Shown here in pieces: positions 2,566-49,005 of a DNA stretch of 64,000 bases (position 1 is its first letter; each line of letters begins with the position of its first letter). The notes under the pieces are model-generated. The model was not told the DNA's origin. It searched no databases and worked only from the letters and a program-made list of their open reading frames with translations. Origin of the DNA: Escherichia coli (GTDB taxonomy: Bacteria > Pseudomonadota > Gammaproteobacteria > Enterobacterales > Enterobacteriaceae); assembly GCF_030013595.1 (NCBI RefSeq), contig NZ_CP122768.1; one strand, given 5' to 3'. A program made the translations under genes and the position numbers.

Positions 2566-2680
2566 GTAAACTCCGGGCAAACTATCTGCCGCTATCATAG
2601 CGGTTTTTCAGTGACGAAGAAGATGTTGTTACTTTTCAGTGCTTGCCGCGATGAAAACAGAGGCGTATTTTAATAATGAC

Positions 2681-2694
2681 GTTCGTATACGAAC
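2681..2694. promoter_or_regulatory. Perfect 14-bp palindrome gttcgtatacgaac, candidate operator for the adjacent MarR-type regulator
   Basis: Exact inverted repeat 18 bp upstream of the ATG at 2712, inside the divergent promoter region. Confidence 0.45.
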
Positions 2695-2711
2695 AATTAA
2701 GAGAATAAACA

Positions 2712-3305
2712 ATGAGACTGATCGTCGGGATGACAGGGGCTACCGGTGCGCCTCTTGGGGTGGCATTACTGCAAGCGCTGCGGGAGATGCCGAATGTCGA
2801 GACTCATCTGGTGATGTCGAAGTGGGCGAAAACCACTATTGAACTGGAAACGCCTTACAGCGCTCGCGATGTTGCCGCCCTCGCAGACTTCAACCATAAC
2901 CCGGCGGATCAGGCGGCGACTATCTCTTCCGGCTCCTTTCGTACCGACGGCATGATCGTTATTCCATGCAGTATGAAAACGCTCGCCGGTATCCGCGCTG
3001 GTTACGCCGATGGTCTCGTGGGGCGCGCGGCGGACGTCGTGCTCAAAGAAGGCCGCAAACTGGTGCTGGTGCCGCGTGAAATGCCGCTTAGCACAATCCA
3101 TCTCGAAAATATGCTCGCACTTTCGCGCATGGGCGTGGCGATGGTGCCGCCGATGCCTGCCTTTTATAACCATCCCGAAACGGTAGATGACATTGTCCAC
3201 CACGTGGTAGCCCGCGTGCTGGATCAATTTGGCCTCGAACATCCTCACGCCAGGCGCTGGCAAGGATTGCCGCAGGCCCGGAATTTTTCTCAGGAGAATG
3301 AATAA
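2712..3305 (+). CDS. ecdB: UbiX/Pad1-family flavin prenyltransferase, subunit B of a hydroxyarylic acid (phenolic acid) decarboxylase
   Basis: Translation MRLIVGMTGATGAPLGVALLQAL... typical of UbiX-like proteins; first gene of a B-C-D operon; symbol by analogy to ecdBCD/kpdBCD naming, as recalled. Confidence 0.85.
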   Translation: MRLIVGMTGATGAPLGVALLQALREMPNVETHLVMSKWAKTTIELETPYSARDVAALADFNHNPADQAATISSGSFRTDGMIVIPCSMKTLAGIRAGYADGLVGRAADVVLKEGRKLVLVPREMPLSTIHLENMLALSRMGVAMVPPMPAFYNHPETVDDIVHHVVARVLDQFGLEHPHARRWQGLPQARNFSQENE

Positions 3306-4732
3306 TGGCATTTGATGATTTACGCAGCTTTTTACAGGCGCTTGATGACCACGGCCAGTTACTGAAAATCAGCGAAGAGGTGAACGCGGAACCGGATCTG
3401 GCAGCCGCTGCCAACGCCACCGGACGTATCGGCGATGGTGCACCGGCGCTGTGGTTTGACAATATTCGCGGCTTTATCGATGCCCGCGTGGCAATGAATA
3501 CCATCGGTTCCTGGCAGAACCACGCGATTTCCCTCGGCCTGCCGCCAAACACCCCGGTTAAAAAGCAGATTGATGAGTTTATCCGCCGCTGGGATAACTT
3601 CCCCATTACCCCGGAGCGCCGCGCCAATCCAGCCTGGGCGCAGAACACCGTCGATGGCGACGAGATCAACCTGTTCGATATTCTGCCGCTGTTTCGTTTA
3701 AACGACGGTGATGGCGGTTTCTATCTCGATAAAGCGTGCGTGGTTTCCCGCGATCCGCTCGACCCGGATAACTTCGGCAAGCAGAACGTCGGCATCTACC
3801 GCATGGAAGTGAAGGGCAAACGTAAGCTCGGCCTGCAACCGGTGCCGATGCACGATATCGCTCTGCATCTGCATAAAGCGGAAGAACGCGGTGAAGATCT
3901 GCCGATTGCCATCACCCTGGGTAACGATCCGATCATCACCCTGATGGGCGCCACGCCGCTGAAATACGATCAGTCTGAGTACGAAATGGCGGGCGCGCTG
4001 CGCGAAAGCCCGTACCCGATCGCCACCGCCCCGCTGACCGGTTTTGATGTGCCGTGGGGCTCGGAAGTGATCCTCGAAGGGGTTATCGAAAGTCGTAAAC
4101 GTGAGATTGAAGGGCCGTTCGGTGAGTTTACCGGTCACTACTCCGGCGGGCGTAACATGACCGTGGTGCGTATCGATAAAGTCTCTTACCGTACCAAACC
4201 GATTTTCGAATCGCTCTATCTTGGTATGCCGTGGACCGAAATCGACTACCTGATGGGGCCTGCCACCTGCGTGCCGCTGTATCAGCAACTGAAAGCCGAG
4301 TTCCCGGAAGTGCAGGCGGTAAACGCCATGTACACCCACGGCCTGTTGGCGATTATCTCCACCAAAAAACGCTACGGCGGCTTTGCCCGCGCGGTGGGCC
4401 TGCGTGCAATGACCACGCCGCACGGTCTGGGCTACGTGAAGATGGTGATTATGGTCGATGAAGACGTTGATCCGTTCAACCTGCCGCAGGTGATGTGGGC
4501 GCTCTCCTCGAAAGTGAACCCGGCAGGCGACCTGGTGCAGTTGCCAAATATGTCCGTGCTGGAACTCGACCCTGGCTCAAGCCCGGCGGGGATCACCGAC
4601 AAGCTGATTATCGACGCCACCACGCCTGTCGCCCCGGACAACCGTGGTCACTACAGCCAGCCGGTGGTGGATTTACCGGAAACCAAAGCCTGGGCTGAAA
4701 AACTGACTGCTATGCTGGCCGCACGTAAATAA
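3305..4732 (+). CDS. ecdC: UbiD-family decarboxylase, catalytic subunit C of a hydroxyarylic acid decarboxylase
   Basis: 475-aa ORF with UbiD-like sequence; start overlaps the upstream stop (ATAATGG), indicating translational coupling. Confidence 0.85.
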   Translation: MAFDDLRSFLQALDDHGQLLKISEEVNAEPDLAAAANATGRIGDGAPALWFDNIRGFIDARVAMNTIGSWQNHAISLGLPPNTPVKKQIDEFIRRWDNFPITPERRANPAWAQNTVDGDEINLFDILPLFRLNDGDGGFYLDKACVVSRDPLDPDNFGKQNVGIYRMEVKGKRKLGLQPVPMHDIALHLHKAEERGEDLPIAITLGNDPIITLMGATPLKYDQSEYEMAGALRESPYPIATAPLTGFDVPWGSEVILEGVIESRKREIEGPFGEFTGHYSGGRNMTVVRIDKVSYRTKPIFESLYLGMPWTEIDYLMGPATCVPLYQQLKAEFPEVQAVNAMYTHGLLAIISTKKRYGGFARAVGLRAMTTPHGLGYVKMVIMVDEDVDPFNLPQVMWALSSKVNPAGDLVQLPNMSVLELDPGSSPAGITDKLIIDATTPVAPDNRGHYSQPVVDLPETKAWAEKLTAMLAARK

Positions 4733-4742
4733 GGAGAACAAG

Positions 4743-4979
4743 ATGATTTGTCCACGTTGTGCCGATGAACAGATTGAAGTGATGGCGAAATCGCCGGTGA
4801 AAGATGTCTGGACGGTCTACCAGTGCCAGCATTGCCTTTATACCTGGCGCGATACCGAACCGCTACGCCGCACTAGCCGCGAACATTATCCCGAAGCGTT
4901 CCGCATGACGCAGAAAGATATTGATGACGCGCCGATGGTGCCGAGCATCCCGCCGCTGCTGGCGGAAGGTAAGCGCTAA
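4743..4979 (+). CDS. ecdD: Small subunit D of the hydroxyarylic acid decarboxylase (Cys-rich, 78 aa)
   Basis: MICPRCADEQ...CQHC motif; position and size match the small D subunit of B-C-D operons; AAGGAG Shine-Dalgarno upstream. Confidence 0.75.
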   Translation: MICPRCADEQIEVMAKSPVKDVWTVYQCQHCLYTWRDTEPLRRTSREHYPEAFRMTQKDIDDAPMVPSIPPLLAEGKR

Positions 4980-39583: not shown

Positions 39584-41019
39584 TTTGCCTCCGATGCCAG
39601 TTCGTCAAAGACGTCTTTGCCAAGGGAGCATTCCGGGCACAGGAAGTTATCCGGAACTTCACTCCACGGCGTTCCTGGCGCAACGTCCTGCATTGGCTCG
39701 CCTTTTGCCGGATCGTAAATCCACTGGCAGACGCTGCACTGCATCCGTGGGCCGAGGTCAGCCGTCGTGGTGGCAGAGGTTTCTTCTTTAACCACCGTAT
39801 TCACCGTGCTCTGCGGCAGCGGCGCGAGCGCCCACTGACGGGCGATTTCGCGACCGTGTTCACGACATAGCTCCAGAGCGTCCTGGTCCGGTCGCCATTT
39901 GGCTTTCAGGCTAAGCGACATTTCGAAACCCGCATCCTGCAGGCGTGTGGAAAGACGATCCACCGCACCGCCGCTCCAGCCATGAGAGCCGAAAGCACTG
40001 GCGCGTTTGTTACGAAAGCGTAAACCAGTCATCTCCTCCACCAGCCCGGCGATTTTTGGCATCATCACGTTATTCATCGTCGAAGTGCCGACCAGCACGC
40101 CTTTTGAGCGGAAGACATTGGTCAGGATTTCGTTTTTATCGCTTCGGGCGACGTTGAAAATTTTCACCGCTACGCGTGGGTCGGTTTCCGCAATACCCTG
40201 GGCTATAGCATCGGCCATCATGCGGGTATTATTCGACATGGTGTCGTAGAAAATGGTGATTCTGTCTTCCTGATAATCCGCCGCCCATTTCAGGTACAGC
40301 TCGACAATTTGCGTCGGGTTATCGCGCCATACCACGCCGTGAGAGGTCGCTATCATATCGACTGGTAAGTTAAAGCCCAGGATCTCGGTAATTTTCGGCG
40401 TTACCAGGCGGCTGAACGGCGTCAGGATATTGGCGTAATAACGCTGGCACTGCTCGAAAAGCTCCGTCTGATCCACTTCATCGTTGAACAGATGCTCGTC
40501 GCAGTAGTGCTGACCGAAAGCATCGTTACTGAACAGTACCGCGTCGCCTGTCAGGTAAGTCATCATGCTGTCCGGCCAGTGCAGCATTGGCGTTTCGACA
40601 AAAATGAGCTGTTTGCCGTTGCCGATATCCAGCGTGTCGCCAGTTTTCACCACATTAAAATTCCACTCCGGATGATGGTGATGACCATTTATCGAGTCGA
40701 TAGCGTTGGCAGTACAGTAGATCGGCGTATCGGGAATTTGTGCCATCAGTTCGGTCAGCGCCCCGGCGTGGTCCTCTTCTGCATGGTTAATCACGATGTA
40801 ATCGATATCCGCCAGATCGATTTCATTACGCAGGTTCTGCACAAATTCGCGGCTGAATTTATGGTCAACGGTGTCGATCAGCACGTTTTTTTCTTCGCGG
40901 ATGAGGTAGCTGTTGTAGCTGCTGCCGCGCAGCGTTTTATATTCCGTGCCGTGAAAATCACGCACTTCCCAGTCACGTTGACCAACCCAATGAATGTTAT
41001 TTTTCACCACAATAGACAT
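39580..41019 (-). CDS. norV: Anaerobic nitric oxide reductase flavorubredoxin NorV
   Basis: 479-aa ORF: metallo-beta-lactamase-like and flavodoxin domains plus C-terminal rubredoxin CxxC...CxxC. Confidence 0.95.
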
Positions 41020-47919: not shown

Positions 47920-49005
47920 ATGTTCAAGCGTCGTTATGTAACATTGCTTCCCCTTTTTGTGTTGCTTGCCGCCTGTAGCAGCAAGCCAAAACCTACTGAG
48001 ACTGAAACGACCACCGGAACGCCGTCTGGCGGCTTCCTGCTTGAGCCGCAGCACAATGTGATGCAGATGGGCGGTGACTTCGCCAATAACCCGAATGCCC
48101 AGCAGTTCATCGACAAAATGGTGAACAAACACGGTTTCGATCGTCAGCAGTTGCAGGAAATTCTCTCTCAGGCGAAACGTCTGGATTCGGTACTGCGGCT
48201 GATGGATAACCAGGCACCAACCACATCGGTGAAACCGCCATCAGGTCCGAACGGCGCATGGCTGCGTTATCGCAAAAAATTTATTACGCCGGACAACGTG
48301 CAGAATGGTGTGGTTTTCTGGAATCAGTATGAAGATGCGTTGAATCGCGCGTGGCAGGTGTATGGCGTACCGCCGGAAATTATCGTCGGGATTATCGGCG
48401 TTGAAACCCGCTGGGGGCGCGTGATGGGGAAAAACCGTATCCTCGATGCGCTGGCAACGCTGTCATTTAACTACCCACGCCGCGCGGAGTATTTCTCTGG
48501 CGAGCTGGAAACTTTCCTGCTGATGGCGCGCGATGAGCAGGACGATCCGCTCAATCTGAAAGGTTCCTTTGCCGGGGCGATGGGCTACGGACAGTTTATG
48601 CCGTCGTCTTACAAACAATATGCGGTAGATTTCAGCGGCGACGGGCATATCAACCTGTGGGATCCGGTTGATGCGATCGGTAGTGTGGCGAACTATTTCA
48701 AAGCGCACGGCTGGGTGAAAGGTGATCAGGTTGCGGTGATGGCAAACGGTCAGGCTCTAGGCTTGCCAAATGGCTTCAAAACCAAGTACAGCATTTCGCA
48801 GCTTGCCGCGGCAGGTTTAACGCCACAGCAGCCGCTGGGCAACCATCAACAAGCCAGCCTGCTGCGTCTGGATGTCGGTACCGGTTACCAGTACTGGTAC
48901 GGTCTGCCGAACTTCTACACCATCACCCGTTACAACCACAGTACCCATTACGCAATGGCGGTCTGGCAGTTAGGACAAGCCGTGGCGCTGGCGCGCGTGC
49001 AGTAA
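47920..49005 (+). CDS. mltB: Membrane-bound lytic murein transglycosylase B (lipoprotein)
   Basis: Starts MFKRRYVTLLPLFVLLAACSS (lipobox LAAC); the track ORF from 47815 is a 5' over-extension. Confidence 0.93.
   Translation: MFKRRYVTLLPLFVLLAACSSKPKPTETETTTGTPSGGFLLEPQHNVMQMGGDFANNPNAQQFIDKMVNKHGFDRQQLQEILSQAKRLDSVLRLMDNQAPTTSVKPPSGPNGAWLRYRKKFITPDNVQNGVVFWNQYEDALNRAWQVYGVPPEIIVGIIGVETRWGRVMGKNRILDALATLSFNYPRRAEYFSGELETFLLMARDEQDDPLNLKGSFAGAMGYGQFMPSSYKQYAVDFSGDGHINLWDPVDAIGSVANYFKAHGWVKGDQVAVMANGQALGLPNGFKTKYSISQLAAAGLTPQQPLGNHQQASLLRLDVGTGYQYWYGLPNFYTITRYNHSTHYAMAVWQLGQAVALARVQ

Follow-up and report, generated by a model that had tools for sequence, protein, structure and literature searches.

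What could be the function of a perfect inverted repeat placed between a divergently oriented regulator gene and a decarboxylase operon, and which protein, if any, recognises it? This question is raised by a locus in a 64,000-nucleotide stretch of Escherichia coli DNA, here called the window. The gene order at the locus is nlpD, rpoS, a MarR-family gene, decarboxylase subunits B, C and D, and ygbN, as read from the open reading frames and the RefSeq context. The repeat, GTTCGTATACGAAC, is its own reverse complement when read directly, a perfect 14-bp palindrome at positions 2681-2694; a preliminary description of this DNA had reported an exact 14-bp inverted repeat there, with correct sequence and coordinates. 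It had also placed the repeat between the divergent regulator and the operon, where it is indeed found, inside the 146-nt gap from the start of the MarR-family gene (2565, minus strand) to ecdB (2712). The distance of 18 bp upstream of the ecdB start given in that description is the same as the 17 nt lying between the dyad and the ATG (2712-2714), counted from end to start. Positions -1/+14, -2/+15 and -3/+16 around the repeat show no consistent pairing for a longer palindrome, so the dyad is 14 bp long. The features of the locus are collected in Table 1.

Table 1. Coordinates in the window of the genes, the dyad and the predicted expression signals at the hosA-ecdBCD locus.
Feature	Position	Strand	Basis
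hosA, MarR-family repressor, 135 aa	2158..2565	-	ORF list; RefSeq 408-nt CDS; 8AGA match
Predicted -35 TTGCCG of the ecdB promoter (inferred)	2643..2648	+	recurrent TTG(C/T)C(A/G); CTTG columns conserved in the unanchored alignment
Predicted -10 TATTTT of the ecdB promoter (inferred)	2666..2671	+	17-nt spacer from TTGCCG
Predicted transcription start (+1)	2678	+	inferred from the -10 position
HosA operator (very probable), dyad GTTCG-TATA-CGAAC	2681..2694	.	read directly; equal to the published-oligo site; kept in 85/85 loci
Shine-Dalgarno-like AAGAGA of ecdB, 7 nt before the ATG	2699..2704	+	read from the sequence
ecdB/vdcB, UbiX-type flavin prenyltransferase subunit, first operon gene	2712..3305	+	NCBIfam VdcB NF041206, RefSeq
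ecdC/vdcC, UbiD-family decarboxylase subunit C	3305..4732	+	NCBIfam VdcC NF041204
ecdD/vdcD, small subunit D	4743..4979	+	NCBIfam VdcD NF041205

The exactness of the palindrome had been regarded as unlikely to arise by chance. This holds for the intergenic sequence, within whose 146 nt a perfect 14-bp palindrome has P ~0.014, but does not hold for the window as a whole, where three perfect palindromes of 14 bp or longer were observed against a mean of 5.5 expected in first-order Markov simulations. Since palindromes of this length are not enriched across the window, exactness is weak evidence alone and was dropped as an argument. The significance of the dyad rests instead on its position, its conservation and published experiments. 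The other two perfect 14-bp palindromes of the window, CAAAGACGTCTTTG and TACCAGTACTGGTA, are located at 39606-39619 and 48886-48899. A search of the window for a further copy of the dyad gave none, all other matches having three mismatches, which is the chance level.

The products of the operon were assigned with curated NCBIfam models. The ecdB product scored 312.8 bits against VdcB (NF041206, cutoff 290), the ecdC product 788.9 bits against VdcC (NF041204, cutoff 650) and the ecdD product 121.2 bits against VdcD (NF041205, cutoff 30). VdcB, VdcC and VdcD are the subunits of non-oxidative hydroxyarylic acid decarboxylase (HAD), and all three ecdBCD genes are thus above the curated cutoffs of this enzyme.

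The divergent gene carries the RefSeq name 'MarR family winged helix-turn-helix transcriptional regulator'; its NCBIfam matches are all MarR-family models, and its PDB matches are all MarR-family proteins. Its product is identical to PDB entry 8AGA ('Transcriptional regulator HosA') at 132 of 134 positions (98.5%; residues 1-134, E = 2.5e-83), and six more PDB entries of HosA were matched besides. By this degree of amino acid identity the adjacent regulator is HosA. The coordinates of the hosA coding sequence were taken from the RefSeq annotation of a strain that is 99.9% identical to the window over positions 2040-2760. Both the RefSeq protein and the crystallised HosA start at the ATG at 2565 (135 aa). 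A longer product of 146 aa would result from a start at the ATG at 2598, further upstream in the same reading frame and within the conserved hairpin at 2588-2604 (described below).

HosA is a known protein. Two sources that relay earlier work (Roy & Ranjan 2016, via 10.1101/2024.04.24.590444 and 10.1101/2024.06.07.597875) present it as a MarR-family protein that represses both the divergent HAD operon and itself; at a palindromic site it sterically blocks RNA polymerase, and it is released by 4-hydroxybenzoic acid (4-HBA) with derepression of the HAD operon. The site is given there as palindromic, 14 bp long and downstream of the transcription start of the HAD operon (Roy & Ranjan 2016, via 10.1101/2024.04.24.590444), and HosA autorepression is likewise reported (10.1101/2024.06.07.597875). 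In vitro, a 43-bp DNA carrying the 14-bp transcription factor binding site (TFBS) of HosA was shifted by HosA and freed by 4-HBA in EMSA; biolayer interferometry (BLI) kinetics of HosA on the same 43-bp site DNA were reported, and isothermal titration calorimetry (ITC) gave a KD of 4.7 uM for HosA and 4-HBA (PMC6261655). The EMSA was repeated in PMC6694116 and PMC10992608.

The published site could be compared with the window through the supplementary oligo table of PMC6261655; a full-text literature search for the 14-mer string found no paper, and the sequence is known from that table. The oligos DNA_HosA-F0 and DNA_HosA-R0 carry the native promoter; F0 reads CAGAGGCGTATTTTAATAATAAC-site-AATTAAGAGAATAAACA..TGAG and equals window positions 2659-2716 except for A/G at 2678, while oligo T_H holds the exact GTTCGTATACGAAC. 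In the machine-read version of the table the site printed in bold appears as GTTTCGTATACGAAC, 15 nt long with an extra T. This is probably a transcription error for the 14-mer, since the forward and reverse oligos share the string, which needs self-complementarity, the text says 14 bp, and T_H is exact. The dyad sequence is the published 14-bp HosA binding site. The window agrees with the published HosA/HAD module in the regulator, the arrangement of the genes, the promoter around the site and the 14 bp themselves; one base alone differs, G instead of A at 2678, which is just outside the site. This G lies 3 nt 5' of the dyad; A is present in every other E. coli allele that was examined and in the published UMN026 oligo, and none of the 5,426 complete E. 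coli genomes matches positions 2640-2716 at 100%.

The suggestions of the preliminary description are supported at this point. It had taken the dyad for the operator of the adjacent MarR-type protein, which agrees with the HosA identity, with the published oligos and with the half-sites kept in 85 of 85 loci (below). It had expected phenolic ligands to release the regulator, and release by 4-HBA is published (PMC6261655; 10.1101/2024.04.24.590444). The check that it proposed, EMSA with and without phenolic acids, has already been published by others (PMC6261655). Binding, release by 4-HBA and repression were shown in the experiments of others; in the present analysis the protein and the site were identified and the conservation was established.

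Conservation was examined in a comparative set obtained by scanning for the HosA protein with one genome per species. The scan gave 80 loci from about 25 genera with HosA identities of 60%-99% (including Escherichia, Citrobacter, Salmonella, Klebsiella, Kluyvera, Enterobacter, Leclercia, Lelliottia, Kosakonia, Phytobacter, Atlantibacter and Rahnella), and with five further E. coli alleles, which share 92-99.9% of their intergenic DNA with the window, the set came to 85 loci. In all 85, hosA and the decarboxylase genes are divergent, and in all 85 the element GTTCG-N4-CGAAC adjoins the start of the operon. Over 81 distinct contexts, dyad positions 2-5 and 10-14 are invariant, and position 1 has G in 75 contexts and A in the other 6. 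In the 4-bp centre, changes are by transition only (TATA 30, TACA 19, TATG 11, TGTA 9, CATA 4, TGTG 1), and the palindrome is perfect in just 30 of 74 distinct orthologous sites. By these alignments, the constrained element is GTTCG-YRYR-CGAAC and not perfect palindromy as such.

In the motif-anchored profile the columns flanking the dyad carry 0.0-0.5 bit. Since the motif had served as the anchor of this first profile, 76 entire intergenic regions were also aligned in MAFFT without any anchor, and the dyad was again the longest fully conserved block. Outside the dyad, the A at 2696 is nearly invariant (79 of 81 contexts). On the protein side, the recognition helix STKATLAEM and the wing DKRRRF are nearly invariant among 83 distinct HosA proteins, whereas the C-terminal third is not, and this pattern would fit an unchanged DNA target.

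Across about 25 genera the dyad stays with the start of the operon and not with hosA. The distance from its end to the start codon of the first gene is 15-19 nt in 72 of 78 loci. In one locus with an intergenic region of about 600 nt (L076), a perfect dyad is still found 17 nt from ecdB. Six loci have no ecdB (L054, L069, L071, L075, L081, L085); their operon starts at ecdC, and the dyad is kept just upstream of it.

The position of the dyad relative to the ecdB promoter could be estimated from the same alignments. A generic sigma-70 promoter scan of positions 2000-2800 returned no site. It missed the ecdB promoter because the predicted elements match only 8 of 12 consensus positions, and we infer the geometry of promoter and start from conservation across genera instead. 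The pattern TTG(C/T)C(A/G)-N17-TA(T/G)nTT precedes the dyad in most of the 81 distinct contexts, and the end of the -10 element is 9-10 nt from the dyad in 53 of them (9 nt in the window). At the aligned Shine-Dalgarno position other genera have GAGG. With these elements the dyad is predicted to occupy about +4 to +17 of the ecdBCD start, which agrees with the position published for the site, downstream of the transcription start (10.1101/2024.04.24.590444).

Taken as a whole, the dyad is very probably the DNA operator of HosA, the divergent MarR-family repressor of ecdBCD. In the proposed mechanism a HosA dimer would contact the half-sites GTTCG and CGAAC, split by a 4-bp pyrimidine-purine centre. 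When bound just downstream of the predicted start, HosA could block initiation or promoter clearance by RNA polymerase. 4-HBA entering the cell would bind HosA and take it off the DNA; the decarboxylase, which converts 4-hydroxybenzoate to phenol, would then be made.

Other explanations of the same sequence could be considered. The palindrome could be a functionless chance occurrence, as the window shows no excess of perfect palindromes of 14 bp or longer (3 against 5.5 expected). Against this stand the retention of the dyad in 85/85 loci, with HosA identities as low as 60% and with randomised neighbouring bases, the narrow spacing of 15-19 nt to the start codon in 72/78 loci and the published binding of HosA (PMC6261655; also 10.1101/2024.04.24.590444). 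Chance is ruled out by the conservation data, and the probability left to it is close to nil. An RNA element is a more specific alternative: a hairpin GUUCG-UAUA-CGAAC in the ecdB 5' leader could affect mRNA stability or translation, with no protein operator involved. The dyad would be transcribed if the start is near 2678, a 5-bp hairpin does appear in the predicted fold of 2678-2740, and a terminator scan detected the dyad stem on the minus strand. The 63-nt leader is, however, no more stable than its shuffled versions (-8.9 kcal/mol, z = -0.28, with 66 of 200 shuffles as good), and the hairpin leaves the Shine-Dalgarno sequence and the ATG untouched. The stem bases are invariant over 81 contexts with randomised flanks, so that compensatory pairs, which selection on structure alone would permit, are absent, and in 36 loci a second copy of the dyad is situated upstream of the -35 element, outside the ecdB transcript. 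HosA, moreover, binds double-stranded DNA in vitro (PMC6261655). With neither extra stability (z = -0.28) nor covariation, a cis-regulatory RNA hairpin was rejected as very improbable.

A further explanation keeps a protein at the dyad and changes its role: the dyad could be mainly the operator of an unlinked factor, HosA binding being incidental, or could serve mainly for hosA autoregulation and not for repression of the operon. We know of no E. coli factor whose consensus matches GTTCG-N4-CGAAC. Autorepression by HosA is reported (10.1101/2024.06.07.597875), the dyad overlaps a possible minus-strand hosA promoter (TTGTTC at 2696-2691, 18 nt, TAAAAT at 2672-2667), and the A at 2696 is nearly invariant (79/81) in spite of its place outside the dyad. 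On the other hand, the dyad is accompanied by hosA in every case and stays at the start of the operon as the intergenic distance changes, and the literature assigns operon repression to the site (10.1101/2024.04.24.590444). A main role of either kind is accordingly given little probability. A possible role in hosA autoregulation adds to the reading of the dyad as the operon operator of HosA and does not compete with it.

Besides TTGTTC-N18-TAAAAT, which overlaps the dyad, hosA has a second promoter candidate, the conserved TATGAT at 2599-2594 (minus strand). Positions 2588-2604 of the window hold an inverted repeat, GCCGCTATCATAGCGGT, followed by TTTTT, which is terminator-like on the plus strand, and its core TAT(C/G)ATAGC is conserved across genera. 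This repeat could serve as the hosA -10 element (TATGAT, minus strand), insulate the locus from read-through out of rpoS or be the site of another protein.

The second HosA-type dyad, G(A/G)(T/C)CG-N4-CGAAC, occurs in 36 of the 80 loci, most commonly as GATCG-N4-CGAAC. Its centre lies 56-57 bp upstream of that of the proximal dyad, and in every case it is found 4 nt ahead of the TTG of the -35 element. The genera with this distal dyad are Klebsiella, Enterobacter, Kluyvera, Leclercia, Lelliottia, Pseudocitrobacter and others (loci L011, L013, L019, L020, L024-L026, L028, L034, L037, L039, L042, L043, most of L045-L065, L070 and L072). Escherichia (including the window), Salmonella, the Citrobacter freundii group and Rahnella have the proximal site only, and a search for a degenerate distal copy at the aligned position of the window (~2624-2637) gave nothing recognisable. 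A tentative suggestion is that repression at the two-site loci is cooperative or involves looping, or that hosA is controlled separately there, and that the single site of E. coli does double duty via the minus-strand hosA promoter; this is possible and rather doubtful.

Several known systems resemble this arrangement. PcaV of Streptomyces coelicolor is a protocatechuate-responsive MarR repressor, which a hydroxybenzoate-type ligand frees from its palindromic operator. Among solved structures, those of PcaV (PDB 4FHT, 4G9Y) come next after HosA in closeness to the regulator (E = 7.6e-16); it is nevertheless only a distant homologue, and its operator sequence and its target (pca catabolism, not decarboxylation) differ. 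MarR with marO, HucR with hucO, and SlyA are like HosA in that a winged-helix dimer recognises a short dyad that overlaps the promoter or start site in a divergent intergenic region and is derepressed by a small aromatic ligand. marO consists of two sites, whereas E. coli HosA has a single 14-bp site located downstream of the predicted +1, with no overlap of the -35 and -10 elements. Among decarboxylase operons, bsdBCD of Bacillus subtilis is homologous: it encodes UbiX, UbiD and small subunits of a phenolic acid decarboxylase and is induced by the substrate. Its control is realized by BsdA, a LysR activator and not a MarR repressor, and the operator of BsdA is unrelated to that of HosA.

Within the species the module is not universal. 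The hosA-ecdB region (2040-2760) was found in 2,381 of 5,426 complete E. coli genomes; in the remaining ones the match to 2040-2760 is limited to the first 44-53 nt after rpoS. The region is a presence/absence polymorphism, in keeping with its place in the variable segment that follows rpoS. In E. coli 1532WA (L003, 773-920) ecdB is annotated as a frameshifted pseudogene, and the upstream operator is still perfect.

The feature is an already characterised HosA operator, the same element as described in another E. coli strain, and is not new: the regulator, operator, ligand and mechanism have been in the literature since 2016, and HosA has been crystallised and its structures solved. The 14-bp site is already in use as the DNA element of in-vitro biosensors for 4-hydroxybenzoate and parabens. 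As a discovery the dyad carries little weight. Its value is that of a confirmation, since a validated operator had been inferred in the preliminary description from the sequence alone.
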